Assembly (NCBI GenBank): GCA_964369695.1 | Contig: CAYJGL010000002.1 | Coordinates: 35 to 64,034 of the forward strand | Direction of reading: 5' to 3' | DNA length: 64,000 nt | Source: an uncultured Clostridium sp. | GTDB lineage: Bacteria; Bacillota; Clostridia; TANB77; CAG-508 | In this document: positions 28,599 to 52,418 of the stretch, in pieces | Position numbering within the stretch: the stretch's first letter is position 1 | Layout of the letters: each line of letters begins with the position of its first letter | Translations under genes and position numbers: made by a program | The notes under the pieces: generated by a model | What the model saw: only the letters and a program-made list of their open reading frames with translations | Databases searched by the model: none | Told to the model about the DNA's origin: nothing

Positions 28599-28654
28599 GG
28601 CCTGTCCCAAAAACGACATAAATGTCGCGTTGGGGACTGTCCCCAATGCGACAC
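28599..28654. repeat. GC-rich palindromic repeat, copy 2 (1.5-unit form); probable terminator of the giant operon
   Basis: Sequence ggcctgtcccaaaaacgacataaatgtcgcgttggggactgtccccaatgcgacac. It is a 54/56 reverse-complement match to copy 3. It lies 30 nt after the stop of the 3396-aa ORF. Confidence 0.9.
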
Positions 28655-28684: not shown

Positions 28685-31600
28685 TTATTTTTTATCTTTT
28701 ATCTTTTGTCTTTTTCCTTTAGAACTAGAACTTCCTGTTGTTTTTATATAATATCTTCTTAATATGAATAAACTTAATATTATTACTCCTATAATTATAT
28801 ATATATATATACTTCCAGTTTGTTCTATACTTTCTCTTGCATTTGAATAATAGTATTCATTTAATTGTGCTTGTTTTTGTATTTTACTTGTTTCTGATTC
28901 TGGTTCTTCTATTTCAGAATCCAATAATTCTGATTCCTTAAATACTTCATAATCATTTGTTTCTGGATTATATACAGTTACATATTCTCTATTCATTAGT
29001 TCTTCTTGATTTACTTCTGGTTTTTCACCGTTTTCGTCTGTTATTTCTAAATTATTCATTGCTACTTCTATTGGTATTTCTCTAAGTTGCTCTTCTATAT
29101 TAGTTGCAATTTGATATTTTTCTTCTTGTTCTTTGTCAATTTCATTTGAATTTCCAAATATGTTTATACTTGCTAAATTAAGTTGAGATGTAATAAAACT
29201 CAATAGACTTGTTTCTGCTGCTTGACTTTGATTAGTTTCCACCCCGTTAGAATCATATATAAGTTTTCCATCTGCATAATCAAAAACTATTACTTGCCCA
29301 TCTGAATACATTGATATTGCCTTAGTTAAATCTCCAAAACTATTTATATGAACAATATTGGAATTTTGATATCCTGTTGGGAAATATACTACATTTTTAT
29401 ACATTTGTATCATATTGTTATCATTCAATACTGCCTGATATACATATTCATTTTTTGTTCCAACTAATATATTGTTAATAATCATTTCATTAGCGTATCC
29501 TATCACTTGTAATAAATTGTTTTGCACTATATATATATATTCTTTATCTACTCCATCAACAGTACTATATGTTCCATATCTTTTTATTATTTGTCCATTA
29601 TATATATATTCTTCTAAGCTATTAACTGTTGATTTCAATATTGCTGATGTTTCTAAATTAGTAATTTGTCCATCATTTAAATTATATATTTCTCCATTAT
29701 CTCTTAATGCTTTTCCATTAAATATATTTAAATATTTATTTACATCATCTATAATTTCTTCTATCATTTTTTCTTCATATTTAACATATCCTTCACTATC
29801 AGTTATTTCCGTAATTTGTAAATACCCTTTTGCTAATGATGTTCCTTTTAAATAATAATAGTTATCTGTTATCTCTATATTATCTGGTAATGTATCTTGA
29901 TCAATTGGAATTACTTCAGTTCTGTTTCTAATACTATCTGCTGTAAATACTTTTTCATTTATAATCTTTCCAGCTGAATTAGTAATTTTTACAGTTATAT
30001 CTGAAATATAATCATATTTTAAAGTATATGTTTTTGATATAATACCTACATTTTCAACTTTCGTATTCCCATTATCATATTCATAAGAAAAAGTAAATCC
30101 ATTGCCAATTGTACTAAAATCTATATTTATCTCATCAATACCACTAGAATACAAATATATCTCTGGAGATATTTCATCTGGTTCAAATCTTTTTTCTATA
30201 ATATTCCCTGATATATCCTTCATTCTTATTAATATATATGTATTTCTATCAAAATCAAATATATATTTACTTGTATTCAAACTATTATTTAATAATTCAT
30301 TATTACCATTTATATAGTCAAATGTCATTCCATTTACTGTTGAACTAAATGTTACTTCTACTTGATTGTCTGATATAGGTAATATTGTAATTTCTGGAAA
30401 TCCTGTTTCATCTACAAATGGATCTTCTGGTATTGGTATTCCTAATTGCGGAAAACTATTTACACTTGCTTTTAATATTGGATATTTAGACATAGATGTA
30501 TTTGTTGTAGAATACTCAAATTTAGTATTTGATAATTTTATATCATTACTATATGTTGAACCTTTTATCAAATCATCATATAGTAAATAATTGTCTTCTA
30601 ATAGTCTATTTTCATCTGTTTGATATACATATTTACCATTTATTGTTGAATATTTATTTACATGTATATTATTAGAATTATTCAAAATATTTATTTTTTC
30701 ATTCCCCACTCTTACTGCTGCATATGCTGCATTTTGAGCCGTTATATCTACATCTACATAAATATTGATATATTTATCAGGTGTACTTAAAGTGTTGCTA
30801 ATAGTCCTTCCTATTATACCGCCTACATTGTCTATTCCTTCTATTTTAGCGCCTCCAATATAAACATTATCCATTACTGTATACGAATCTGTACTTCCCA
30901 TATGACCTACTATTCCACCTATTTCATCTCCGGATCCTTCTATATTTGCATTTGTATATACTCCAGATATTATTGTAGATGCTTCTATTTCTCCAGCTAT
31001 TCCACCAACTCTAACCACTCCTATTATATCTGTTCTATTAGAACTTTCAAAAAATGTATTATAAATTGTTGCCTTCATATCATTATTATAGTATTTAAAA
31101 TATCCCACTATTCCACCAACTCTAGCTTGACCTTTAATACTCGTATTAGTTACTCCACAACCTTCGATTTCAGCTAAACCATATCCGAATATTCCACCTA
31201 TTCCTTGGCTTCCTTCTATAGTTGTATTTTTTACATTACATGAATCTATTTTTCCATGTCCATATGCCAATATTCCTGCAACATTGTTTCTTCCTTTTAC
31301 AATACAGTTCTCAACATTAGAATTACTTATTTCAAAAAATCCTCTACCAGCAGATATTGCAGATACTTGGTTAGTTCCCGTTATTTCTGTATTTTTAACG
31401 CTAATATTTTGTAGATAATATTTATATTGATCTATATCACCATTAATATCTACATCTGGTGTATATCCTATAATACCACCAATATTAAACAATTCTCCTT
31501 TTATTATATTTTTTTCTAAATCCATAATATCTATATTGATATTATTTAATCTAGTACTCGTATTAGCCATTTGACCATAGATTCCACCAACGGCAACACT

Positions 31601-34600
31601 TCCTTCTATATTTATATCGTATAAATTTATATTCATTACCTCTTCTGGTATCCAAGAAGCATGACCTACCAGTCCACCTACCCCTGTATTACCTTTTATT
31701 ACAATATTTTTAATATCAATTGTTTTATTTATATCATCTGCTTTTAATGATACGCTTGATGCTGAACCTATGATTCCTCCTACATAGTTATTTCCTGTTA
31801 TATTTATATTATTTATTTCCATCTTTGAATTATCAATATTTGTTTTAAATATACAATCAACACGTTCAGAAAAGGCAAATAGTCCTCCAGTATAATCATT
31901 TCCTTTTATCGTTATATTATTAAGTGTTATATAATGAGCATCTTTTTGTGTAGTATTTTCATTAATAGCAATGGGTGCTACATAATCTATATTCGGAGCT
32001 TCAATATTTATATCTAGAAAATTTATATTCTTAATATTTCCTGTCATATATACTATTACCCCTGTATTTTCTCCATCTGTTGCACTATTGTTTATTATAA
32101 TATCCTCAAAACTAATTCCCTCAAGTTCTTTAGTAATCATTTTAATTAGACCTATATCTGACCCAGAAGCTAGTATGTTTACATTAGAAATGATCTTTAT
32201 TTCATTCACATCATTTGATTTAATTCTTCCTATCGTTACATTTTTAACTATATCATCTGATGATAAATCTTTAAAATCTAAATCAGCTGCTATATAGTAA
32301 TTTTGATATGTTCCAACATTATCTGGGTTACTAAACCATTGATTCCACCCTGTTATTCCATCACTAGAATCATAATCATTAACTCTATCTATAACTTTGT
32401 AGAATTTAGCATCTATTTTCAATTCTAAATTTTGAGTTCTAGTTTCATTTTCTTTTGTATATTCAATATTTGATACTCTATATGAATCATATGCTTTTGT
32501 TGTTGAATATTTAAGATTTATTTGTGTTTTATATATATCATCATATTCTACATCTAGAAAATGTTCTTTTAATTCTGGATTACTATTTATCTCACTGCTA
32601 CTTACTTTTACAGCTTCTTGAATTCTACTATCATCAGATAATTTCATATCATCTACAATTATATTTTGAATATCTATATCTTGTTTATGATATATGTTCA
32701 TATACATATTAACAGTAAATATTTCTCCTGTTGGTATATTATATGAAAAATCTTGTATAAATAAGTCTTCTAAATTATTCTCTATTTCATTGTCAATTTG
32801 ATATTTAACTAATTCTTCTTCATCTTTATTGTATACTTTAGGCAGTCTTGAAACATTGTCTATATTTTCAATTTTATATGCATTATTTCCATTTGTATTT
32901 AATATTTCATTATATATTTGTTCATTTGATATATCTGAATAAGATAATAGTTTACCTTGTGGGTTATTTAGATTCTTAGCACTAACACCATTTACTAATT
33001 GTTCTTCATATATATATATATCATTTACAGCTTCTATTGTTTGTTGGTTTCCTACTGCACTTCCTATATTATCTGTTACCATTGATGTATATACATTTCC
33101 AAATACTATATTATCGCGTATATGCATAGACTGATTTATTCCTATTAAACCACCTATATTTTCTGAATCTGATGTTATTTTAACATTTGAATACGAATTT
33201 TCTAATAAATCGATATTACCAGTTAAATTTCCTGCTATTCCACCTATTACTGATGTATTTGCATTTATTTCACCAATTACATAACAATTTTTTATACTTT
33301 GAAAATAAATTGGAGATGCAGAATCTGTACCAGATGTTTTACCTATTAAACCACCTATTCCTTCTGAATCAAATATATCTATTGCATTTATGTTAATATT
33401 ATGAACATAAGAATTTTCTATATCTGCTCTTGTTAAATCTGCAACCATCCCTCCAATAGTTATTGTTTGTGCAGAATTCACTTCTATTAAAACATTATTT
33501 ACAGAAGAATTTTTTATACCATTCCCATATGATACTTTCCCTACAAGAGCTGCTATTTCTATATCTCCTCTTGTATTATTACTATATATTTTTACATTTT
33601 TTATATGAACGTTTTCTATTAAACTTTGGTATGCAACTCGTATAAATGCATTGTAATCACTTGTGTTTCCATTATTAATTTCATATCCATCAATAATTAA
33701 ATTTCTTATTTCTCCACCATTCATATCATAAAATATATTTGATTGATTTAGTATATTTATATTTTTAATTACCTTATTATTTCCATCTAATTTCCCACTA
33801 TATGTTTTATTAATTACAATATCTATACTATTTTCATTATTAAAATCAATATCATTCATTAATATATAGTTTTCTGTTACTGCTGTATCATTTAAATCTA
33901 TATTTTTCCATTCTTCTTCAGTTGTTATAGGTTTATATAAGTCTATATTAATAACTTTTTGATCTTCATTATATTTCTTTATATCATTTACAAATCCATA
34001 TTCAATACTTTTTATATCATATTTTGATACATAGACACTTGGATTGAATAATCTAACTGTTAATTGTGTTAGTCCATCTGCTACCAGCTGATTTGTTTCT
34101 AGTATCTCTACTTTTCCAATGTTTTCTATTTCAATATTACCAATATACACATCACTTGGATTAGATATTGTTAATTTTATATCTGCTACAACTTTATCAT
34201 CAGGATACTGATTTATAATATCAGTATATTCAGATAAATCACCACCTATTGTAGTTGGTTTAGTATAATTATTTATTGTCTCTATTGTTGTAATTTCTGG
34301 TATTATTTTTTCTTCAACTATTGGTAATTTATTATACTCTTGTTTTGGCATACAATCTGGAAAGTCAAGATGTGGATAATATCCTGATGATATAAGTTCA
34401 TCTACAATAAATCCATTTGTACTATTTAATACCATATTTTGAAAGTTTATATCATTTAACTCTATAGGTGTTATTTTAGAATGAATTCCATTATCAAACC
34501 TATGTATATTAGAGTAAAAAATGTTTGCTATATTAGCATAATTATCAAGTATAACCGGTCCTGGATTATTTGTAATTGTGGGAACTCCTATTTTTCCGTC

Positions 34601-37600
34601 TATTATATATGAGTTTCCTAAATTAACACTATATATATTCTCAGCAGTTGAATAATGTGCATTTTCCCATACTAAACTATTACCCGATGTATTATTAATA
34701 TTGTTTGTAGTACTTTCTTCTATATCTATTAGTGTATATATATTTTTAATAATAGAATCAATTAGATTTTGTCTAATTATGAGATTAACTTCCAAAGTTT
34801 TTTCAGATTTTTGTATATTACTTCCATACATATATACATTTTCTATCTGTCCCCAGTTTTGCCTTGCTACTCCCGTAAAATTTTCATTTACTATAATCTT
34901 TGTTTCAATATTTATTGCTATATTCTTTATAGTTCCATAATTATAATTTGTAAGAATTCTATAACTTTCTATATTAATCATTTCATTTGGATTGCTTGAA
35001 CTAAGATTTATTTGTACATTTTCTATTATTCCATAATTTATTGATACAAAACTTGTGTAGACTTCTTGTTCTCTTCTATTATCAATTTCTATTTCAAAAA
35101 TAAGATTTTTCAAAACAGATTGTTTTGTTGTGTCTATAAATATATATTGTGTACTTTCATAGGTATTTTTTATAAGTTTTTTTCCATTAAAATCAATTAC
35201 ACCATCGAAAGGAATTCTTGTAGTATTACTATATCCAAAAGTAGATCTTCCTTCTAAATCTATATCATTTATAAATAAATAATTTCCTTTAGGTTGTATT
35301 TCTTTGTATTTCTCTAAATTAGATATACTTTTAATTTCAACTTCATTATCAGTATTAAATTCTATTTTATCTAAAGAATATTTTTGTGTATTTCCATCGT
35401 AATATGATATATTAACCCCTATTTCTACAATATAATCTGTATCTTTTATACAATTATATTGCTTTTCTTTGATTAGATTATATATTGATGAATTAGGTTT
35501 ATTTATAAATTCATCCGCTATATATACTGTTTCAGTTTCGTTAGTATCTTTATTTGTATAATTTAAATAAAATTCAATTTTAGGTTTATCTTGAGTTATT
35601 TCAGATATTGAATACATTTCATTATCATATTCTACTTCAAGTCCGTGTGTTAATTGATAGTTATATTTAAAAGGTTCATAATCTGTTGCTGTACTTCCTA
35701 ATTCAATTTGAAAATCTTTTAAATTTAACCAAGTCTCCATTAAATCGCTTGATTTCCCAGATACATATATACCTAATAGCCCTGTATCAGTTATTTGAGT
35801 CGTATATTCAAATCTTTTTGCATTATCTTCTGTAAAATATGTTTTATAGTCCGAATTATTTAGCAAATTAGTTTTACCAGATGTAGATAATCTATCAGTT
35901 ATATATACACTGTTTAAACTTGATGTATAACCTTTTACAGATGGTATAAACGAGATAGTTATATCTTGACCTATATATTGTTCCCAATCTTCACCTAATG
36001 ATTTTGATATATCATATAAATAGTATTGTTGAGAGTTTGATGTATAATCTCCTACTAATACAGATAATGTATTAGTATTTTTAATATATTCTTTTCCAAA
36101 TACATATCTATCTGTATAAGATGGCGCGCCGTAAAATACAGATCTCCAATTTATATCTGACTCTACGTTAGCCAAATTTTTACTATTATTATTTACTTTT
36201 TCTAACCCATGAAATTCTATATTCGCATTAATTGAATCAATTGTTTTAAATGTCTTTTTTTCTCCTAATTGCTCTTCTAATAATTCTTTATTTTCTTCAT
36301 ATCCAATTTGTTTATTAGTCAAATTATATGTCGGTGCTATTACATTTAATATATATATTTTATTATATTCTAAGTTTGAAAATTCTACTTGTACAAAATC
36401 TTGAGTATTTGTGTCTATTTGTATTATTTTCACTATCTCTCCTGTTTGTTCATTTACTAACTCTAAATTAACTTTTGAAGTTTGATTTATATTTCCATTT
36501 TCAATATCTTCTTTGTTTTGTATTGCATTATCTATATCTTCAAGTTTTATATCAAAAAATATTTTATCTTTAGTTACAAATTCATTTTTTATCAACACTA
36601 TAGGCTTTTCTTTTTGTGTTATAATTTGATTTTGTTCATTTGTCTCATCTAACTTAAATTCAACATACAATTCTTCTGTTATATTTCCTGTAATCACAGT
36701 TGCAACTACTTCAACATTATATATTGTGTTAGATGTTAAATTATCTACTGTTTTTTCTACATAATCAATTGTATTATTTTTTAAATTTTCTAATTCTTCA
36801 TCAGATAATCTATTTGATATTATTTCACCCGTAGTTATGTCTGTTAGTTTTATATCAATATATGAAATTAATTGTATAAGCTGTTCATTTGTTCTATCCG
36901 AATCAATTTTCATATCAAATTTAACAGAGTCAGATGAATTTTCTTTTTCATTAACATCCATATATATTTTTCCTAATGAAGATATATCTACAACTGTAAA
37001 TATGTTTTTATATAGCAAATTGTTTGTTTTTAGTCCTTTACCATCTTCAGTATCAAAATCGGCATATACTTGAATTGTATATATCTCACTTGCACTAAGA
37101 TCTTTAACTATTCTTTCTTCTTTTTTATCTTTCAAATTTTCTTTATATACTATTTCTCCATTTTGTTTTAAAATTTGAAAATAATAATTTTGTAATTCGA
37201 CATCATCTTGATTATCTTGTATAAATTCTAATTCTACAGCTGCTGGTGTTTCTGTTATTATTGTTACATCCACATTTGGTTCTGTTTTTGATGTTCTAGT
37301 TGCTCCTTTATTATTTTCTACTATTAATTGATTGAAAAATTTATCATATATTTTTATTTCATAATTAATTTCACTATCACTTTTTACTGTTTCTTCTGTC
37401 TGATAATTTATACTTTCTCCATTTAATAATTTATTTATATCTGATTTAGATATATTATATATTAATCCATTAACAGTTATTTCTATTTTGGCTATACCAT
37501 TTAATACTTCATCTGATAATTCGTTTTGAATTTTAAGATTTTTAAGTTCAATTTTATTTGAATATATATCTCCATTTTCATAAGTCATTTTTATGGTCTC

Positions 37601-38875
37601 TAATGCTGATAAGTCTTTTGTTTTTATTGTTCCATTATAGAATGTTTCTTTTTGTTTTATATTATTTTCATTTAAATATTCAAATTCCCCTATTATGCTA
37701 TATTCTGTATCAGGTTCTAATCCTGTAATTTTCAATTCGCCTGAACTATATACTCCAACTCTCAAATATGTTCTTTCTTCTTTTTTTAATGTATATGTAA
37801 TATTTGTTATTCTTGTAGTAGGATCTTTAATATCAACATTTCCTGTTGCTGTATATACATTTCCTACAAAATCAGTAGAGCTAATTTCTGGTTTAATATA
37901 TTCTTTTTCTTTATTATCTATGTCATTATTTTCATTTTCCCCTTGATTATTTGGTGTTATATTTGTTTGATTTGTAGTTTGACTTTCTGTTTCATTTACA
38001 ATGTTAGCTTCTTCATTGCTTTCAGTATCGTTCTCTTCTTCAACTTTTACTATATTCATTTTTATTAAAAATTCATAATATGACATTGTTTCTCCATTGA
38101 TTTCTATTTCTGAATAAAAATCAATATCATCTATTTTCTTATATTCTAATTTATGTTCATTAGGCTCATAATATATTATATAATCTTTTTTAAAATTAAT
38201 AATTGAATTTAATGGAATAGTATATTGGTTTAATACTGTTTTTACTTTTATTTCAGTTACATTTATGTACATATTATCTTTGTTTTTTAAAAATATATAT
38301 TCATTATTATCAGCTCTTGTTAAATCATGTCTATTGTACATCTTTTTCTCTGATAATATAAAATTTGAATATCCTTGAATTTCTTCATAATTAGATGTAA
38401 TTAATTTCATTTCTTCTGAAAGATTATATACTGCAATATTATCATTTTGATACATTGGATAATCTGAATTGATTTGAGTATTACTATCTGAATTTACAAA
38501 AAAACTATTTAACCTTTCAAATATAGTTGAATTTTCATCAATTTGCATTAACTCTACTGATTTTATTGCTCTTTCTTCATCTGTTATTGTTAAATTATCT
38601 GAAAAGTTCATGTCTGTTATAGCATAGCTTGTATTATCTACTATTGTATATGGATTTAATTTTATAAATATATTATAAATTATAATACTTATTAGTATAA
38701 CAAAAATTAAACCTATTAAAAGAAATAATGGTTTATTTTTTGATTTATTTTTTTTGTTAACATTATTTCTTTGAATAATATTTTTAGATTTTTTCATAGT
38801 TCTATCACTTTTAATTTTATTACTATTTATTTTTCTATTACTTTTTCTGTTATTGTCTTTGTTTTGGTTTTCCAT
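28685..38875 (-). CDS. giant (3396 aa) surface protein anchored at both ends: FN3/Ig-like arrays plus three GLUG-motif beta-helix modules
   Basis: - N-terminus: a ~50 aa Lys/Asn/Arg-rich tail, then TM LFLLIGLIFVILISIIIYNIFI.
- Repeated FN3-like units (for example GLEPDTEYSIIGEFEY).
- Three modules open with Y.(L/I)..DID(L/F) caps: YLFINDIDLEG ~35221..35280, YILMNDIDFNN ~33841..33880, YYIAADLDFKD ~32281..32310.
- Many GG(L/I)(I/V/A)G GLUG repeats follow, over ~30790..35300.
- C-terminus: TM IYIYIIIGVIILSLFIL plus a basic tail. No LPXTG. Confidence 0.85.
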   Translation of the reverse strand: MENQNKDNNRKSNRKINSNKIKSDRTMKKSKNIIQRNNVNKKNKSKNKPLFLLIGLIFVILISIIIYNIFIKLNPYTIVDNTSYAITDMNFSDNLTITDEERAIKSVELMQIDENSTIFERLNSFFVNSDSNTQINSDYPMYQNDNIAVYNLSEEMKLITSNYEEIQGYSNFILSEKKMYNRHDLTRADNNEYIFLKNKDNMYINVTEIKVKTVLNQYTIPLNSIINFKKDYIIYYEPNEHKLEYKKIDDIDFYSEIEINGETMSYYEFLIKMNIVKVEEENDTESNEEANIVNETESQTTNQTNITPNNQGENENNDIDNKEKEYIKPEISSTDFVGNVYTATGNVDIKDPTTRITNITYTLKKEERTYLRVGVYSSGELKITGLEPDTEYSIIGEFEYLNENNIKQKETFYNGTIKTKDLSALETIKMTYENGDIYSNKIELKNLKIQNELSDEVLNGIAKIEITVNGLIYNISKSDINKLLNGESINYQTEETVKSDSEINYEIKIYDKFFNQLIVENNKGATRTSKTEPNVDVTIITETPAAVELEFIQDNQDDVELQNYYFQILKQNGEIVYKENLKDKKEERIVKDLSASEIYTIQVYADFDTEDGKGLKTNNLLYKNIFTVVDISSLGKIYMDVNEKENSSDSVKFDMKIDSDRTNEQLIQLISYIDIKLTDITTGEIISNRLSDEELENLKNNTIDYVEKTVDNLTSNTIYNVEVVATVITGNITEELYVEFKLDETNEQNQIITQKEKPIVLIKNEFVTKDKIFFDIKLEDIDNAIQNKEDIENGNINQTSKVNLELVNEQTGEIVKIIQIDTNTQDFVQVEFSNLEYNKIYILNVIAPTYNLTNKQIGYEENKELLEEQLGEKKTFKTIDSINANIEFHGLEKVNNNSKNLANVESDINWRSVFYGAPSYTDRYVFGKEYIKNTNTLSVLVGDYTSNSQQYYLYDISKSLGEDWEQYIGQDITISFIPSVKGYTSSLNSVYITDRLSTSGKTNLLNNSDYKTYFTEDNAKRFEYTTQITDTGLLGIYVSGKSSDLMETWLNLKDFQIELGSTATDYEPFKYNYQLTHGLEVEYDNEMYSISEITQDKPKIEFYLNYTNKDTNETETVYIADEFINKPNSSIYNLIKEKQYNCIKDTDYIVEIGVNISYYDGNTQKYSLDKIEFNTDNEVEIKSISNLEKYKEIQPKGNYLFINDIDLEGRSTFGYSNTTRIPFDGVIDFNGKKLIKNTYESTQYIFIDTTKQSVLKNLIFEIEIDNRREQEVYTSFVSINYGIIENVQINLSSSNPNEMINIESYRILTNYNYGTIKNIAINIETKIIVNENFTGVARQNWGQIENVYMYGSNIQKSEKTLEVNLIIRQNLIDSIIKNIYTLIDIEESTTNNINNTSGNSLVWENAHYSTAENIYSVNLGNSYIIDGKIGVPTITNNPGPVILDNYANIANIFYSNIHRFDNGIHSKITPIELNDINFQNMVLNSTNGFIVDELISSGYYPHLDFPDCMPKQEYNKLPIVEEKIIPEITTIETINNYTKPTTIGGDLSEYTDIINQYPDDKVVADIKLTISNPSDVYIGNIEIENIGKVEILETNQLVADGLTQLTVRLFNPSVYVSKYDIKSIEYGFVNDIKKYNEDQKVINIDLYKPITTEEEWKNIDLNDTAVTENYILMNDIDFNNENSIDIVINKTYSGKLDGNNKVIKNINILNQSNIFYDMNGGEIRNLIIDGYEINNGNTSDYNAFIRVAYQSLIENVHIKNVKIYSNNTRGDIEIAALVGKVSYGNGIKNSSVNNVLIEVNSAQTITIGGMVADLTRADIENSYVHNININAIDIFDSEGIGGLIGKTSGTDSASPIYFQSIKNCYVIGEINANTSVIGGIAGNLTGNIDLLENSYSNVKITSDSENIGGLIGINQSMHIRDNIVFGNVYTSMVTDNIGSAVGNQQTIEAVNDIYIYEEQLVNGVSAKNLNNPQGKLLSYSDISNEQIYNEILNTNGNNAYKIENIDNVSRLPKVYNKDEEELVKYQIDNEIENNLEDLFIQDFSYNIPTGEIFTVNMYMNIYHKQDIDIQNIIVDDMKLSDDSRIQEAVKVSSSEINSNPELKEHFLDVEYDDIYKTQINLKYSTTKAYDSYRVSNIEYTKENETRTQNLELKIDAKFYKVIDRVNDYDSSDGITGWNQWFSNPDNVGTYQNYYIAADLDFKDLSSDDIVKNVTIGRIKSNDVNEIKIISNVNILASGSDIGLIKMITKELEGISFEDIIINNSATDGENTGVIVYMTGNIKNINFLDINIEAPNIDYVAPIAINENTTQKDAHYITLNNITIKGNDYTGGLFAFSERVDCIFKTNIDNSKMEINNINITGNNYVGGIIGSASSVSLKADDINKTIDIKNIVIKGNTGVGGLVGHASWIPEEVMNINLYDINIEGSVAVGGIYGQMANTSTRLNNINIDIMDLEKNIIKGELFNIGGIIGYTPDVDINGDIDQYKYYLQNISVKNTEITGTNQVSAISAGRGFFEISNSNVENCIVKGRNNVAGILAYGHGKIDSCNVKNTTIEGSQGIGGIFGYGLAEIEGCGVTNTSIKGQARVGGIVGYFKYYNNDMKATIYNTFFESSNRTDIIGVVRVGGIAGEIEASTIISGVYTNANIEGSGDEIGGIVGHMGSTDSYTVMDNVYIGGAKIEGIDNVGGIIGRTISNTLSTPDKYINIYVDVDITAQNAAYAAVRVGNEKINILNNSNNIHVNKYSTINGKYVYQTDENRLLEDNYLLYDDLIKGSTYSNDIKLSNTKFEYSTTNTSMSKYPILKASVNSFPQLGIPIPEDPFVDETGFPEITILPISDNQVEVTFSSTVNGMTFDYINGNNELLNNSLNTSKYIFDFDRNTYILIRMKDISGNIIEKRFEPDEISPEIYLYSSGIDEINIDFSTIGNGFTFSYEYDNGNTKVENVGIISKTYTLKYDYISDITVKITNSAGKIINEKVFTADSIRNRTEVIPIDQDTLPDNIEITDNYYYLKGTSLAKGYLQITEITDSEGYVKYEEKMIEEIIDDVNKYLNIFNGKALRDNGEIYNLNDGQITNLETSAILKSTVNSLEEYIYNGQIIKRYGTYSTVDGVDKEYIYIVQNNLLQVIGYANEMIINNILVGTKNEYVYQAVLNDNNMIQMYKNVVYFPTGYQNSNIVHINSFGDLTKAISMYSDGQVIVFDYADGKLIYDSNGVETNQSQAAETSLLSFITSQLNLASINIFGNSNEIDKEQEEKYQIATNIEEQLREIPIEVAMNNLEITDENGEKPEVNQEELMNREYVTVYNPETNDYEVFKESELLDSEIEEPESETSKIQKQAQLNEYYYSNARESIEQTGSIYIYIIIGVIILSLFILRRYYIKTTGSSSSKGKRQKIKDKK

Positions 38876-38904: not shown

Positions 38905-39699
38905 CTATTCATATATCTCTAAGCTATCTATTGTTTTTATTAATAACTGTTCTTTTGTTCCTGTTTTTAACGAATCTATTGACATATCTATTTCATAATT
39001 ACCTGTTTTAGCTATTACACTAGAGTCTTCGGTTATAATAACATTTCCTACATCTGATTTTTTATCATAAATTTCTACCATTTGCTTATATGACACATTA
39101 GCATACGACATAGGAGATACTACATATTCAATCTCATCAATTATTATAGTTGTTTCTTCTAAAAATACATATAGATCTTTTCCATTAAATAAAAAACTAT
39201 TTTCTATCTTTTTATCTTCTTTTCTACTATCTAAATATATACCATCTTCTTTTTCTTCTAAAACAGAAAATCTAGGTAATTTATTCATACTTCCGTTATT
39301 TAATGGCTGTACTAATGCCATATCATTGGAAAATAACATTTTAGGTTCATCTTTATAATATACTGGTGTAAAATCCAATTCAATATTTTCATTTTCTGTT
39401 TGTAATTCAGAAACCTCACCATTATATAGTATTTTCATAGCTCCTGTATATTCTACTTTTCCTTGTCCTATCCATTGATAAAAATCTTTTTCTTCTATAT
39501 TTTCTGTATTTAAATTAATTATAAAAAGAGCTACTATAACTAAAATTATTAGCAGTGTTAAAAAAATGACTATTTTCAATACATTATCTTTAAACCAATT
39601 TTCATTTTTTTTATTTTTCTTTTTTTTATTTTTTGAGTTTTTTATATCTTCTTTATAATTATCCGTAATCTTAGCTTTGGATTTATTATCATTATTCAT
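38905..39699 (-). CDS. bitopic membrane protein (basic tail-TM-extracytoplasmic domain), operon member
   Basis: 264 aa. Lys-rich N-tail (KNSKNKKKKNKKNE), one TM (IVIFLTLLIILVIVALFII), then a ~200 aa beta-rich domain. The gap to the next gene is 29 nt. Confidence 0.7.
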   Translation of the reverse strand: MNNDNKSKAKITDNYKEDIKNSKNKKKKNKKNENWFKDNVLKIVIFLTLLIILVIVALFIINLNTENIEEKDFYQWIGQGKVEYTGAMKILYNGEVSELQTENENIELDFTPVYYKDEPKMLFSNDMALVQPLNNGSMNKLPRFSVLEEKEDGIYLDSRKEDKKIENSFLFNGKDLYVFLEETTIIIDEIEYVVSPMSYANVSYKQMVEIYDKKSDVGNVIITEDSSVIAKTGNYEIDMSIDSLKTGTKEQLLIKTIDSLEIYE

Positions 39700-39743: not shown

Positions 39744-40286
39744 TTATTTTTTGTTTTTTTGTTTATCTTCTAATTTCTTTTCCTGTATTTTTCTATCTGT
39801 TAATGTTTCTACAAAGTTTTTTAATAAGAAATATAGTACATATGTTATTAAAAATACTGTTAAAGCTATTTGAATTAAGAAAACATAATTTTCATCTGAT
39901 ACGTGTATTCTATATTCTTGTAATATATTAATAAAATATATCAAGAAAACTTGAGCTGTTATATTGAAAATTTCAAAAATACTTCTTTTTAAAATTATAA
40001 ATATTATGTCTGCAAATATAATCATAATTATAGTTGTAATTACATTTGTTTGATATATTATAACAGCATATACTATTAAAATTGTTCTTATTAGTATACT
40101 GCATAACATAGCTATTTGCTTACTTTTTAATGCTGAAATTAATCCAAAATATCTTGTTCCTTTTTTGTGTATATTTATTTTTTTTGTATTTAAATATATT
40201 AGTATACTACCTGCTAATATTATGATAAAAAAAACTAATGTCAACATTAAATAATTGGTTAAATTATACATTATATATTCAGACAT
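39744..40286 (-). CDS. small polytopic membrane protein (about 5 TMs) with intramembrane Arg and Asp
   Basis: 180 aa. Hydrophobic segments include CSILIRTILIVYAVIIY and IIMIIFADIIFIIL. Lys/Glu-rich C-tail. No family recognised. Confidence 0.65.
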   Translation of the reverse strand: MSEYIMYNLTNYLMLTLVFFIIILAGSILIYLNTKKINIHKKGTRYFGLISALKSKQIAMLCSILIRTILIVYAVIIYQTNVITTIIMIIFADIIFIILKRSIFEIFNITAQVFLIYFINILQEYRIHVSDENYVFLIQIALTVFLITYVLYFLLKNFVETLTDRKIQEKKLEDKQKNKK

Positions 40287-40346
40287 ATTTACTCCTTTTA
40301 TTTTCCATTTTAAATTTTATTTATTCTGCTTCACAATTTATCTATT

Positions 40347-40377
40347 AATTATCTATCAAAGTTTTTTTGATAGATAA

Positions 40378-40379
<2 letters not shown>
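40347..40379 (-). other. intra-operon stem-loop at the 3' end of the ATPase module
   Basis: Perfect 14-bp inverted repeat aattatctatcaaa / tttgatagataatt with a 5-nt loop. It overlaps the stop codon of the epsilon-like gene. No U-run follows on the minus strand. Confidence 0.45.
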
Positions 40380-42019
<1,640 letters not shown>

Positions 42020-42820
42020 TTATTCTTCCTTACTTTTTATTTTTACAAAATTTTCAACTACTTTTTTAAAGTTCATATTTTTAATTTTTTTTCTATTTTG
42101 TAAGTCTTTTTCTTCTTCGATTTCATCTATCTTTTTTAGTGAATCACTTGTAATTCTTTGTCTCATAATATTTTCAGATGCATAACTATTTTCAACAGCT
42201 ATCTTAATTTCATATGATATGTATAATGCAATTAAATTAACTAATATATTTTGTATATTTCCTTCAACAGTAAAATCTTCGTTATATTTAATTTTTGTCT
42301 TTTCTTTACTATCTTTATCAATCGGCAATACTTTTTTCTTAGTAAATTCAATATTACTTATATTGTGATAATGATTATATATAATGTTTATTTCACTATT
42401 TTTACCTTTTTGAATAATATCATATATACATTCTTCTATTTGAACATCGTTCTCTATGTATTCTTCTTTTGTCATTGACATTAATACATTATCTTTTTTT
42501 CCAATTATTTTTTTTCCAATTATTATTTTATCTGCATCTTTTTCTTTAATTGCTAAACTATTTACATTTGTATTAAATCCACCACAAAATCCTAAGTCAT
42601 TTCCTATATATATATTTAATGGTTTTGCTTTTTTATTTAGTTTAACTGTTTTTTGGTCTAATATTAGATTTTTATTATTCAATATATTATCCATAAAATC
42701 TGATATGCTTTTTTCATATTCGAAATATTTTTCTGCTGTTTTTTTCGAAGAGTCTACTCTTAATAATGCATGAAAATTCATAACTTTAATTACATTTTTA
42801 ATTTTCATTAATACCCTCAC
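42020..42820 (-). CDS. atpG: F1 ATPase gamma-like subunit
   Basis: 266 aa between the alpha and beta genes. The N-terminal IKNVIKVMNFHALLRVDSSKKTAEKY resembles the gamma N-helix (I.S..NT.KIT.AM..VA..K..+A), and the C-terminus is helical. It overlaps the alpha stop. Sequence similarity is weak. Confidence 0.55.
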   Translation of the reverse strand: MRVLMKIKNVIKVMNFHALLRVDSSKKTAEKYFEYEKSISDFMDNILNNKNLILDQKTVKLNKKAKPLNIYIGNDLGFCGGFNTNVNSLAIKEKDADKIIIGKKIIGKKDNVLMSMTKEEYIENDVQIEECIYDIIQKGKNSEINIIYNHYHNISNIEFTKKKVLPIDKDSKEKTKIKYNEDFTVEGNIQNILVNLIALYISYEIKIAVENSYASENIMRQRITSDSLKKIDEIEEEKDLQNRKKIKNMNFKKVVENFVKIKSKEE

Positions 42821-44129
42821 TTAGATTTTTAAATTTTTCTATTATATCTTCATTTGAAAGCGGTGAATATTTATGTTGTTTTAGTGCTTCTTGTATTTTT
42901 CTACCTTCAATCATTTTTGTTCTTAGTTCTTCACTCATTTCATCCATATTTGCTAATTCGTATACTTCTTTTGTTTCTAAATAACTTAAGAATTTTCTTC
43001 TTATATCTGCTCCTAATTTTTTAATTTCAGAAGATTGAACTGCTCCACCTAACCTAGATACTGATACACCATAATCTATTGCTGGTTTTTGTCCTTTACT
43101 AAATTGTTTTTCTGATAATACAATTTGCCCATCTGTAATCGATATTATATTTGTAGAAATATAGTCTGTTATATCTCCACCTTTTGTTTCTACTATTGGT
43201 AGTATTGTTATAGAACCACCATTTTTATGTTGACACCCTTTTTCTAGTAATCTTGAATGTGTATAGAATATGTCCGCTGGATATGCTTCTCTTCCTGGAG
43301 TTTTTCCAGATAATATACTTATTTCTCTGTATATTTCAGCATGTTTTTTCAAGTCATCTATTACAACTAAAACATCTCTTTTCATATTCAAATATTCTTC
43401 TGCTATAGATAACCCTACATAAGGTATTAGGCTAAGTACTGGTGCTGTATCTTCATTTGTTGCAACAACCATTGTTGTATATGAAGTAGCATTTTTTCTT
43501 GATAATTCATTATATATAGATTTTATTTCTTTTTTTGTTTTTCCTACTCCTATATATATACATATCATACCTTTGCCTTTTTGATTTACTATAGTATCTA
43601 AAGCTATTTGTGTTTTTCCTACTTTTTTGTCTCCTATTATTAATTGTCTTTGTCCTTTTCCTATTGGATATATTAGATCAATCCCTGATATACCTGTAAG
43701 CATTGGTCTTTTTACATCTGTTCTATCCATTATTGGAATTGTTTCATTTTCAATATTTATATATTTTACATCTTCAAAGGATTTTCCAACTAATAAATCT
43801 ACACCAAATAAGTTTGTTACTCTTCCTAGCGCTTCTTTTGCAAATATTGCCTTTAGGCTTTCACCTGTAGAATTTACTATATCTCCAACTTCTATAGGAA
43901 AATATTGTTTCACTAGTGCAACAGATACATAGTTTTCATTTATTTCGTTTACATATCCCATTCCTTTTTCCCATATATTAACTTTTTCAAAAAATTTAAC
44001 ATTTTCTAATCCTGATACATGTATTATGTAGTCTGTTACTCTTATTACTTTTCCTGAATCAAAAACATTTTCTTCATTTTTAATTTGTTCTATCTTTTTA
44101 TTTAATAAATTCTCTATATGTGTTGCCAT
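42798..44129 (-). CDS. atpA: F1 ATPase alpha-like subunit (short C-terminus)
   Basis: RQLIIGDKKVGKTQIALDTIVNQ (alpha Walker A context), VLVVIDDLKKHA, GREAYPADIFYTHSRLLE, GSITILPIVETKGGDITDYISTNIISITDGQIVL and PAIDYGVSVSR. At 443 aa it is shorter than the ~500 aa typical length. Confidence 0.9.
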   Translation of the reverse strand: MATHIENLLNKKIEQIKNEENVFDSGKVIRVTDYIIHVSGLENVKFFEKVNIWEKGMGYVNEINENYVSVALVKQYFPIEVGDIVNSTGESLKAIFAKEALGRVTNLFGVDLLVGKSFEDVKYINIENETIPIMDRTDVKRPMLTGISGIDLIYPIGKGQRQLIIGDKKVGKTQIALDTIVNQKGKGMICIYIGVGKTKKEIKSIYNELSRKNATSYTTMVVATNEDTAPVLSLIPYVGLSIAEEYLNMKRDVLVVIDDLKKHAEIYREISILSGKTPGREAYPADIFYTHSRLLEKGCQHKNGGSITILPIVETKGGDITDYISTNIISITDGQIVLSEKQFSKGQKPAIDYGVSVSRLGGAVQSSEIKKLGADIRRKFLSYLETKEVYELANMDEMSEELRTKMIEGRKIQEALKQHKYSPLSNEDIIEKFKNLSEGINEN

Positions 44130-44146
44130 ATTATTTTTCCTTTCGT

Positions 44147-45007
44147 TTATATACTATAATCATATATTTGACCTCTGTATATTATCATTACACCTTCTGA
44201 CATATTTTTATAAAAACATGTTTTAATATTTTCGTTTAAATGATCATAATTTAAATCTTTTATTCCTACGTATATATATATAGTTGGATCATATTGTTTA
44301 ATTATTCTTTCTAAATAATCTACTAATTTAGTTATAGTAAATTTGTTAATGTTTGAAAATTCCTTTTCTAAATCAACTATTTTTTGAACTTCTTTTGTTG
44401 TGACTTGTTTTACTAATTCATATTGCTCACTATTTGTAAATGTTAATAAGTCATATATTACTTTAGGCGAAAATTGATCCTTATATTTTTTTAATAATTC
44501 ATATTCTTTTGCCATTTTCACACTACCACGTTTTTTGGTTTTGTTTTCTAAAAAGTTTTCTATAACTTCTCTATTATCAATATTAAATTGTTTTTTTAAT
44601 TCTTTATAGTTATAGAAGAAACCTTCTTCTTTATATTTAGGTGATATGTTTTCGATTCCTAAATTATTTTCTTCTTTTTTTATAATAGCTTCTTTTACTC
44701 TTAACTTTTCCTTATATTCTTTCATTCTCACTAATTTATTCTCAATATCATTATCAAATAATAAATCAGTATCTTCTTTTTCTAGCATTTCAACTATTTT
44801 AGATTTTTCTTTTATTTTCTGCAATCTTTCTAAAATTTCATCATATTCTTTTTGCTTTTCATCTATTAAATAATTATATTCTTGTAATGTTCTAAGAAAA
44901 TATTTTTTTACATTTTGATCTATTCTTTTCACAAGATTTTTTAATATATAAAAACTGAATATGAACATTATACCTACTATTAATATTGCTTGAATTATTT
45001 CTTCCAT
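44147..45007 (-). CDS. peripheral-stalk-like protein (b-like N-terminus, possible b-delta fusion)
   Basis: One N-terminal TM (IIQAILIVGIMFIFSFYIL) and a long charged coiled-coil-like region. The C-terminus EGVMIIYRGQIYDYSI resembles the delta/OSCP end (..GG..I.VGD.V.DGS.). It occupies the atpF/atpH position. Confidence 0.45.
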   Translation of the reverse strand: MEEIIQAILIVGIMFIFSFYILKNLVKRIDQNVKKYFLRTLQEYNYLIDEKQKEYDEILERLQKIKEKSKIVEMLEKEDTDLLFDNDIENKLVRMKEYKEKLRVKEAIIKKEENNLGIENISPKYKEEGFFYNYKELKKQFNIDNREVIENFLENKTKKRGSVKMAKEYELLKKYKDQFSPKVIYDLLTFTNSEQYELVKQVTTKEVQKIVDLEKEFSNINKFTITKLVDYLERIIKQYDPTIYIYVGIKDLNYDHLNENIKTCFYKNMSEGVMIIYRGQIYDYSI

Positions 45008-45022
45008 ATTTCACCTACCACT

Positions 45023-45283
<261 letters not shown>

Positions 45284-45332: not shown

Positions 45333-46787
45333 TTAATATACTCTCACCATAGCACTTACATCTGGCGATATTTTTGTTCCGCTATAATACACATCTTCAA
45401 GTCTTACTTCTATAGTAGAACACACTTCTCTATCAAATGTATATACCCATCCATTATAGCTTGCTGCTTGTGAAATATTTACTTGCTGTTTATATGTTCT
45501 TTCACTTTCTGTTCCTTTATCTAATATCATTACAATATTTGCACTTTGATATATATATTTTTGATCTATTTTTAATGTTCCTGTTATATTGTTTACTCCT
45601 ACTTTATCGATTGTTACACTTGATGAATCATCTTTTGTTCTAATTACAATTACATCTTCTATATTCTCTTTTACTGTTCCATTTTCTTTAATTTCTTTAG
45701 AGTTTAATGAAACTGTGTATTCTTTATTTGGGTTTAAACCTGTTATTGTATATGATGTTTGGTTTTTATCTAGTGATATAGTATCATTTTTATCTCCAGA
45801 TAAGACTAAGTATACTGTTTGATACATGTTTTCAACATCTATTATAGAATAATCTACTGTAATTGTTGATGATGTTGATGATGAACCTCTTAAACTTATG
45901 CTTTTAGCAACTGGTGTTTGTGAATCAAAGTTTTGATTTCCTGAATTAGTTCCTGTTCCACCTGTATTTCCATTATTATTGCTATTGCCATTATTAATAT
46001 TTATGTCTGTATTATTGCTATTGTTGTTATTATAGTTATTACTATTATTATTTACTACTGATTGTCCTGTTTGCTCAGATTCATCATTCTCTTCTTCTGT
46101 ATTAGTACCTTCTACAACATCTACTTTTTCTATATATTCATTTGTACTTCCTATTATTTTTTTAAGATCTATTTCTCCATCACTATAAATTAATTTTTCA
46201 TTTGCTATATCAAATTCAAATGAATCTGTTATTATTGTCATCGGATTTATAATTTTTGTATTAACTTCATGATTTTGTAATAATGTATTTCCAGATCGAT
46301 CTATAGTTACTATTAAATAATTTTCAGTATTTAGTGTTCCTGTTGTATCAACAATCTCTGATGCTATTATTAAATACTTTCTATCTTCCAATTTATACAA
46401 TTGACTATCAGAATAATCTAATATTTCAGTTCTACCAGAATATTTTTCTACTTGTCCACCTAATGTTACTTTATATATTTCTCCAAATACGTCTAGAGTT
46501 ATAGCATTTTGATTTAAGACTATTGCATGTTCTCCTAATTTATATTCATTATTTTCTTCTTTTATATAATAATTATTATCCCACTTTCTTTCTATTTCGC
46601 TCTTAGCTTTTAATTCCATTGGATTATCTTCACTATCGTAGAAAAATGTATTTGATGATAATTGATACTTTGAATCCTCCCTATCTGAAATTATATATAA
46701 ATATGTTACTAATATTGCTATAATAAGTAGTATTATTATAAAAAACACTACAAAATTTTTCTTATTCCCATTTGATAATTTTCTCAA
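45333..46787 (-). CDS. bitopic surface protein (484 aa): tail-TM-juxtamembrane domain-Asn-rich linker-FN3-like domains
   Basis: TM FVVFFIIILLIIAILVTYLYII. Low-complexity linker NNNSNNYNNNNSNNTDININNGNSNNNGNTGGTGTNSGNQN (~45918..46106). FN3-like GLNPNKEYTVSL. Confidence 0.8.
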   Translation of the reverse strand: MRKLSNGNKKNFVVFFIIILLIIAILVTYLYIISDREDSKYQLSSNTFFYDSEDNPMELKAKSEIERKWDNNYYIKEENNEYKLGEHAIVLNQNAITLDVFGEIYKVTLGGQVEKYSGRTEILDYSDSQLYKLEDRKYLIIASEIVDTTGTLNTENYLIVTIDRSGNTLLQNHEVNTKIINPMTIITDSFEFDIANEKLIYSDGEIDLKKIIGSTNEYIEKVDVVEGTNTEEENDESEQTGQSVVNNNSNNYNNNNSNNTDININNGNSNNNGNTGGTGTNSGNQNFDSQTPVAKSISLRGSSSTSSTITVDYSIIDVENMYQTVYLVLSGDKNDTISLDKNQTSYTITGLNPNKEYTVSLNSKEIKENGTVKENIEDVIVIRTKDDSSSVTIDKVGVNNITGTLKIDQKYIYQSANIVMILDKGTESERTYKQQVNISQAASYNGWVYTFDREVCSTIEVRLEDVYYSGTKISPDVSAMVRVY

Positions 46788-46799
46788 TTATATCACCTC

Positions 46800-52331: not shown

Positions 52332-52418
52332 ATTTCCTCCAACAAATTCTAGTTGTATTTTATACATTTTTTATACACATAATTCTAAATATATTATATA
52401 CTATTTGTGTGTGTTTTT

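Follow-up and report, generated by a model that had tools for sequence, protein, structure and literature searches.

What might a walled gut bacterium do with a surface protein of 3396 amino acids (aa) that is encoded in one operon with an F1-like ATPase? The question is raised by a stretch of 64,000 nucleotides (nt) from an uncultured Clostridium sp. (assembly GCA_964369695.1, contig CAYJGL010000002.1), referred to below as the window, which has a G+C content of ~24% and carries nearly all of its genes on the minus strand. The open reading frame (ORF) in question, at 28685..38875 (-), runs without interruption for 3396 aa plus a stop codon under translation table 11 (P0001, here called the giant). 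The initial annotation, made from the letters of the window alone, had read it as a single protein, and the uninterrupted frame together with the colinearity of its relatives bears this out: the gene is real and specifies a giant cell-surface protein. Its first ATG is preceded, 11 nt upstream, by a Shine-Dalgarno-like GAAGG and no such site stands before the internal Met27, for which reason the 48-residue basic tail at the N terminus is retained in the description that follows.

We propose that the giant serves as the external working arm of a putative accessory surface machine that is driven by ATP, a reading to which we would assign a probability of about one half. It is supported by the position of the gene in the operon, by a 7/7 co-occurrence of the giant with the ATPase among related genomes, by the fixed order of the giant's domains and by the conservation of its anchors at both ends.

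Linkage of the giant to an F1-like ATPase

The genes of the operon lie on the same strand in the order 1855-aa protein, 484-aa protein, c-like subunit, 286-aa stalk-like protein, alpha-like subunit, gamma subunit, beta-like subunit, 94-aa protein, 180-aa protein, 264-aa protein and giant. The ATPase module proper (39744..45265, -), as recognized with Pfam, comprises the c-like (80 aa), stalk-like (286 aa), alpha-like (443 aa), gamma (266 aa) and beta-like (454 aa) components, the 94-aa protein and the 180-aa multi-pass membrane protein; the c-like subunit has no carboxylate in its second helix and the operon has no a subunit. The 264-aa product (38905..39699, -) is a single-pass protein that, on comparison of loci, stands directly upstream of the ATPase-linked giant in both of the operon arrangements known to us, and its gene is followed after only 29 nt, within which lies a Shine-Dalgarno-like site, by that of the giant. 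A GC-rich, perfectly palindromic hairpin with a stem of 14 base pairs (28623..28653) is found in this AT-rich genome 32 nt past the giant's stop codon. It is likely to be the end of the operon, and because it follows that stop codon we regard the giant as the last gene of a long transcription unit.

The family was sampled with 45 members (22-33% identity, coverage up to 99%), and all relatives come from vertebrate gut samples. Genes of the ATPase operon are located beside the giant in 25 of 66 related loci and the 264-aa partner alone in 3 more, the remaining loci being short contigs or extra copies in multi-copy genomes. The operon order described above recurs next to a relative that is only 23% identical. 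Another common arrangement has the 264-aa gene and the giant first, followed by the 1855-type and 484-type genes and then by the ATPase. Among 151 genomes of the same order, a profile of the giant's N-terminal domain detects 7, and the atypical beta subunit (72-100% identity) occurs in exactly the same 7; neither component is present in the remaining 144, and at least 20 genomes of the same genus are without the giant as well as without the atypical ATPase. Ten other sampled genomes have only an ordinary F1 beta subunit (44-45% identity). The strict co-occurrence, together with the joint absence from so many members of the genus, means that the system is accessory, inherited or lost as a unit, and not the energy-conserving ATPase of the cell. 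The initial annotation had connected the giant with the F1-like ATPase, and the adjacency and co-occurrence now make that connection far stronger.

Neither an ordinary F1 beta subunit nor V-type subunit I nor flagellin is seen in the source genome, and the atypical enzyme seems to be its only rotary ATPase. An F-type beta subunit at an expect value (E) of 1e-60 or better is missing from most sampled genomes of the order. A search for an empty site found the flanking genes greA and comFC on different contigs in all 11 relatives in which both were detected (comFC was not found in G130). The cluster is located elsewhere in the relatives that carry the system, and no insertion boundaries could be drawn.

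In the machine that we envisage for this gut Firmicute, a wall-bearing organism of low GC, the giant would be fixed by a signal-anchor at its N terminus and by a stop-transfer helix at its C terminus, and the ~3,286 residues between them would form a single loop outside the membrane. On the ascending arm of this loop, the novel all-beta domain at the N terminus would be joined by a linker to five FN3-like domains, with a CBM4-like domain next to them; the distal part of the loop would be made of three rigid beta-helix modules, two of them with GLUG rungs, with Ig-like domains between them; and on the descending arm a propeller-like beta domain and a linker would be followed by the conserved hairpin and by the helix that runs into the second membrane helix. 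The effect of ATP hydrolysis inside the cell might travel across the membrane part as far as the membrane-proximal ends of the loop, where it might shift the adhesive distal part, with its CBM-like domain and beta-helices, or alter its tension, in the manner of the F1-like ATPases of mycoplasmas that act on Gli349 and Gli521 or on MIB-MIP. A physical link of the giant to the ATPase, and any movement or binding, are inferred.

Several observations weigh against the proposal. Many genomes have extra copies of the giant that are distant from any ATPase genes, and neither the tails nor the residues of the membrane helices are conserved in the family, such that no contact surface for the ATPase is visible. 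No relation could be demonstrated between the giant's N-terminal domain and those of the operon's further surface proteins, and for P0001, which itself has no Pfam CBM_4_9 match, the assignment of a CBM domain is weak. In distant relatives, moreover, the N-terminal segment is preceded by only 3-5 residues and has a hydrophobicity of 2.1-2.7, which makes it look more like a signal peptide.

The first two of these points, and the presence of an FN3-like array, a CBM4-like domain and GLUG beta-helices such as are typical of Gram-positive adhesins, would be accommodated by a passive adhesin or surface coat that only binds host or dietary glycans or other cells, with an ATPase that aids its export or assembly or is unrelated to it. 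We consider this the most serious competitor of the working-arm proposal and still a distinctly less probable explanation of the locus. It does not easily account for a co-occurrence of 7/7 versus 0/144, for an adjacency that persists at 23% identity or for the conservation of both anchors and of a membrane-proximal motif, and to our knowledge rotary F1-type enzymes do not serve as protein exporters. The pattern of conservation also differs from that of fast-evolving adhesins: all parts of the giant follow in the same order in every aligned relative, except for residues 2806-3005, which about half of them have, and pairwise identity is even along the protein (30-49%). As judged from these alignments, such even conservation and fixed order are unlike what is seen in adhesins that shuffle their repeats.

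Multi-copy genomes deserve separate mention (loci L009, in GCA_964261755.1, and L014-L038). Three giants stand in tandem at L009, one metagenome-assembled genome (MAG) has at least nine loci and a long-read chromosome has six. No more than one giant per genome was found beside the ATPase (one in two of the genomes, none at the tandem locus L009); a variable repertoire of giants may serve one motor.

Two further surface proteins of the operon, of 484 aa (45333-46787) and 1855 aa (46800-52367; together 45333..52367, -), are anchored at the N terminus and have no C-terminal anchor. Their N-terminal outer domains are homologous to each other (hhalign probability 96.5%, E 8e-10). We considered whether one N-terminal domain is shared by all of the operon's surface proteins and rejected the idea, because phmmer, hmmsearch and hhalign link the giant to neither of the two; between the giant's N-terminal domain and the outer domain of the 264-aa partner the profile similarity is weak (E 1e-3, probability 20%).

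Membrane anchors and topology

Kyte-Doolittle analysis of the 3396 residues finds only two strongly hydrophobic 19-residue segments, one near each end of the protein. The first, of signal-anchor type, spans residues 49-67 (38675..38731, -; mean 2.96) and is present in 40 of 45 relatives, and the second spans residues 3354-3372 (28760..28816, -; mean 2.60), is present in 42 of 45 and lies in a long helix in an AlphaFold2 model of residues 2995-3396. The tails beyond them are basic by charge count, with a net charge of +14 for residues 1-48 (38732..38875, -) and +9 for residues 3373-3396 (28688..28759, -), and on the loop side the flanks are slightly acidic (-2 and -3). Of the 45 family members (22-33% identity), 40 have exactly two such segments, one at each end. 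Among the five exceptions, four are visibly truncated and the fifth, P0036 (3271 aa), has no hydrophobic segment at its annotated start; the 42 members with the second segment are the 40 with both segments plus P0034 and P0036.

Two hydrophobic helices with positive-inside flanks are thus present, as would be expected of a bitopic protein with both termini in the cytoplasm. Because hydropathy, flanking charges and the predicted helix of segment 2 all agree, and because both anchors are kept down to 22% identity, we infer an N-in/C-in topology with ~3,286 residues outside as a single loop. This is essentially the picture that the initial annotation had drawn, with a Lys/Arg/Asn-rich tail and a membrane segment at the start, a second membrane segment and basic tail at the end, and a loop of ~3300 residues pinned between them. 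Its further hint that the cytoplasmic tails might meet the F1 part is not supported: the tails are short and unconserved in length and sequence (0-48 aa at the N terminus and 4-24 aa at the C terminus across the family) and nothing suggests that they dock there. With tail and helix residues unconserved, the anchors appear to be maintained as anchors and not as specific docking sites, and coupling to the ATPase, if there is any, is more likely to proceed via the membrane helices or the conserved membrane-proximal outer domains than via the tails.

One such conserved element is located just outside the second membrane segment. Residues 3296-3353 (28817..28990, -) form, in the family alignment and in the model, a beta-hairpin of the type Y-V-T-V-Y-N-P-E-T-x-x-Y-E-V followed by a helix that runs into segment 2; the hairpin (YVTVYNPETNDYEVF) is conserved together with the helix, and Y3298, Y3309 and Y3342 are invariant.

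A closed loop presupposes that the N-terminal segment is retained in the mature protein. Were it a Sec signal peptide that is cleaved, the mature giant would be held by the C-terminal helix only, as occurs in other tail-anchored giants. The MKK-type starts of the distant relatives, with their 3-5 residues before a less hydrophobic segment, point in this direction, as does a conserved G-Y-A ~15 residues past the segment. In the giant and its closer relatives, however, the hydrophobic run measures 19-23 residues at a mean near 3.0-3.4, which exceeds the usual length of a signal-peptide core, and the tail that precedes it can reach 48 residues. No small-x-small site is found close behind the segment, and the G-Y-A is too distant from the hydrophobic core and lies inside a confidently folded beta domain. 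Loss of the stretch after segment 1 by cleavage is also argued against by the finding that the residues directly behind it form strands of that domain, which is modelled with a predicted local distance difference test score (pLDDT) of ~90. The anchor may well be retained, and cleavage is the less likely alternative. At one ATPase-linked copy (L017:9851-10150, in the long-read MAG chromosome OZ006978.1), a stop codon is found shortly upstream, no ATG, GTG or TTG precedes the first hydrophobic segment and the first ATG falls within it; an unusual start codon, a sequencing error or a decayed N terminus may be responsible.

A more specific version of the working-arm proposal would place the giant's two membrane helices on different parts of the motor, one on the turning, ion-blind c-ring and the other on the stator side, which might be formed by the stalk protein, the 180-aa membrane protein and the 264-aa partner. 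Rotation driven by ATP could then wind, pull or cyclically strain a loop of ~3,300 residues that crosses the cell wall, and the system could act, in a walled cell, as a rotary-to-linear surface actuator whose use might be gliding-type movement, adhesion by grip and release or the stripping of bound host molecules. We offer this version as a speculation of low probability.

Attachment to the cell wall by known signals is not indicated. The initial annotation had noticed no LPXTG, SLH or CWB element, and we likewise found no LPXTG by inspection of the sequence and no Pfam hit to SLH or CWB domains even when the giant was scanned in 500-residue slices with E up to 10. The sequence IEQTG does occur directly ahead of the C-terminal hydrophobic segment, and we take it to be a matter of chance because nothing comparable stands there in ~40 relatives. 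Its absence from all relatives that were read led us to reject the giant as a sortase substrate, despite the presence of nine sortase genes in the genome. The likely substrates of these sortases carry unusual motifs such as IKTGG, LITGQG, IPPTGAN, VPDTG and LPNAG in addition to the classical LPKTG; large ORFs with sorting motifs at their C-termini are found on contigs C28, C27, C18, C20, C5 and C39 of the source genome.

Domains of the outer loop

The distal part of the loop contains three beta-helix modules, in each of which short repeats extend between an N-cap (..Y.L..DID[LF]) and a C-cap (..YP.L or LPK); they lie at residues ~1181-1515, 1649-2020 and 2161-2805. When the family alignment was cut by region and the resulting profiles were compared with hhalign, the modules proved to be homologous, with probabilities of 99% for modules 1 and 2 (E 9e-18), 100% for modules 2 and 3 (E 9e-42) and 94% for modules 1 and 3 (E 1e-7). 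Module 1 (34331..35335, -) contains no G-G-x-x-G motif and has N-Y-G-x-I-x-N rungs instead, ending in the C-cap GYYP.L..P.CMP.Q; it is a GLUG-less relative of the others, linked to them at the profile level only. Some 15 GLUG-type rungs (G-G-[ILV]-x-G) are distributed over residues 1808-2690 (30806..33454 of the window), with 4 in module 2 (32816..33931, -) and ~11 in module 3 (30461..32395, -). The initial annotation had thus been right about three modules and wrong in assigning GLUG repeats to all of them and in counting these by the dozens; its F.G..DGN.K.I.N segment, supposed to open every module, is degenerate in module 3.

The Pfam Glug family (PF07581) passes its cut-off in the slice of residues 1501-2000 (23.3 bits versus 20.5) and is found more weakly in the next two slices, the whole-protein scan giving no match at E 0.01 or better. 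The family profile matches chain P of PDB 7uvl, an IgA1 protease of Gemella, at E 5e-16 and 3n6z, a beta-helix of a "putative IgA1 protease" of Bacteroides, at E 2.6e-10, and module 2 by itself matches 3n6z (E 1.7e-4), in agreement with the likeness to IgA1 protease-type GLUG proteins that the initial annotation had pointed out. In this respect only profiles were informative: PDB searches with the single sequences of modules 1 and 3, of the CBM-like region and of the C-terminal stretch yielded nothing useful.

The Ig-like domain that follows module 1 (residues 1516-1648, 33932..34330, -) is homologous to that after module 2 (residues 2021-2160, 32396..32815, -; hhalign 97.8%), from which we conclude that a unit of beta-helix plus Ig-like domain was duplicated.

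We looked for a protease and rejected it, as there is no HExxH or HxxEH anywhere in the giant and no Peptidase_M26 or other protease domain of Pfam. By these sequence criteria the giant shares the scaffold of the IgA1 proteases and not the enzyme. Nevertheless, since the closest solved relatives of its modules are beta-helix parts that gate the IgA1 substrate, since a Type 3 ATPase is needed for MIB-MIP function in mycoplasmas and since all relatives come from the vertebrate gut, one might imagine that the modules capture gut IgA or a similar host molecule and that the ATPase powers its release or removal. This strikes us as improbable, given that the eight neighbouring operon proteins scanned are as devoid of Pfam protease domains as the giant, that the Pfam MIP-type domain (DUF31) was not found and that GLUG beta-helices occur in many unrelated surface proteins.

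At the membrane-proximal end of the ascending arm, residues 68-285 (38021..38674, -) constitute the domain that is the signature of the family. It is modelled by AlphaFold2 as an all-beta structure with many short hairpins (pLDDT 88, predicted template modelling score 0.84), and fold searches gave no significant match among PDB entries or viral models, the nearest weak hits being single-layer beta-sheet proteins; according to the model it is possibly a new fold. Its profile retrieves 401 clusters at 50% identity, and in all 150 of these that were listed it stands directly behind the N-terminal segment; most of the 150 have lengths of 2,800-4,300 residues, and the shorter proteins among them probably represent fragments from contigs. 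A low-complexity linker rich in acidic residues, Asn and Thr, recognized by reading the sequence (residues 286-326, 37898..38020, -), has the lowest conservation in that half of the protein and leads to five FN3/Ig-like domains (residues 327-875, 36251..37897, -). These are interrelated (hhalign 84-95%), and Pfam fn3 just reaches its cut-off at residues 534-605 (25.1 bits versus 25, in the slice 501-1000); Glug and fn3, two of the families for which a Pfam check had initially been suggested, are thus found in slices.

Residues 876-1070 (35666..36250, -) resemble a CBM4/9-type jelly roll, the profile of this region matching 1gui_A, the CBM4 of a laminarinase, at E 1.5e-4, and Pfam CBM_4_9 is found in 3 of 10 family members (best E 8e-4). 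The spacer of ~110 residues that follows (1071-1180, 35336..35665, -) is conserved in all members and Ig-like by position and length only, and hhalign matches it to none of the other Ig-like units at 50% or above. Beyond module 3, the stretch that is present in about half of the family (residues 2806-3005, 29861..30460, -; alignment coverage 0.53) contains a linker and two small Ig-like units. The C-terminal all-beta domain (residues 3006-3210, 29246..29860, -; AlphaFold2 pLDDT ~80) has meanders like the blades of a propeller, with local Foldseek matches to WD40 and BamB at E ~1e-4 and yet a TM-score of ~0.2, and it is connected to the membrane-proximal hairpin by a helical and low-complexity linker of low conservation, described from the model (residues 3211-3295, 28991..29245, -). 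NCBIfam scans of every slice of the giant returned no family.

The idea that the frame is a chimera assembled from collapsed repeats, to which a fragmented, metagenome-type source assembly (175 contigs, 5.4% contamination) might lend some colour and which the initial annotation had named as its own possible undoing, can be dismissed for practical purposes, because the longest internal DNA repeat measures 53 nt at 74% identity, the giant compared with itself gives zero internal protein hits, colinear full-length relatives that span 97-99% of the query are found in dozens of gut assemblies that are independent of one another, a long-read chromosome among them, and most of the clusters listed for the N-terminal domain are of comparable length.

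Comparison with known systems

Giant adhesins of Gram-positive bacteria, those of the Ebh type for example, may be anchored by sortases or by a C-terminal membrane segment. The giant resembles them in its size, in its arrays of Ig/FN3-like spacers and in its C-terminal hydrophobic segment with a basic tail; it differs from them in having no conserved sorting motif and no long, near-identical repeats, and in its fixed order, its second, N-terminal anchor and the linkage of its gene to an ATPase.

The M26 IgA1 metalloproteases of Streptococcus and Gemella (PDB 7UVL) are the reference systems for the beta-helix (PMC7695701, PMC9637739), which in these enzymes is a gating domain ahead of the active site (PMC9637739). 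A right-handed beta-helix of GLUG type is common to them, to 3N6Z of Bacteroides and to the giant, which in contrast to the M26 enzymes has no M26 catalytic domain or HExxH, three beta-helix modules instead of one and membrane helices in the place of LPXTG.

The pairing of giant surface proteins with an ATPase, by comparison, has been described so far only in mycoplasmas, where F1-like ATPases work with surface proteins and no equivalent outside the group has been reported (PMC3369863, PMC12994834); our literature searches, too, found no description of a giant-ATPase system outside mycoplasmas. Gliding of Mycoplasma mobile depends on a Type 2 F1-like (G1) ATPase and the giant surface proteins Gli349 and Gli521 (PMC8406192, PMC12994834), and the Type 3 "F1-like X0" ATPase serves the cleavage of antibodies by MIB-MIP; in both types the ATPase is thought to transmit force across the membrane to the surface proteins (PMC3369863, PMC12994834). 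F1-like ATPases that power surface proteins and do not make ATP are, in other words, known only from wall-less mycoplasma cells that glide or cleave antibodies, and the protein described here would be the outer component by which a comparable, unnamed system of walled gut Firmicutes is defined, with its N-terminal domain represented in 401 clusters. If the coupling is real, it would widen the known uses of rotary ATPases, offer a larger and richer system in which to study how torque inside a cell is converted into work outside it, and point to an unexplored surface activity, be it adhesion, movement or dealings with host molecules, in gut bacteria that are common and yet uncultured. As a concrete trait that is open to test, the double anchor narrows the range of mechanisms to be considered.

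The Type 3/MIB-MIP system and the system of the giant have in common an atypical F-type ATPase cluster for surface proteins, a proposed ATP-driven conformational change that is relayed across the membrane and a patchy distribution. They differ in that the giant has no MIB- or MIP-type domain (neither DUF31 nor any other mycoplasma family is matched in it by Pfam), in that its class of surface partners are multi-domain giants ~4 times larger, and in that the hosts are walled gut Firmicutes. With the machinery by which M. mobile glides the giant shows no sequence relation that we have seen, the sequences of Gli349 and Gli521 not having been compared directly. The likenesses are those of organization: very large surface proteins with terminal membrane helices, an ATPase that is derived from F1 and is not an ATP synthase, and an accessory system with a conserved gene set. 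The walled counterpart, unlike its mycoplasma model, encodes its giants inside the ATPase operon, retains a c-like subunit, operates in a cell that has sortases and a wall, and appears to hold its giant at both ends.

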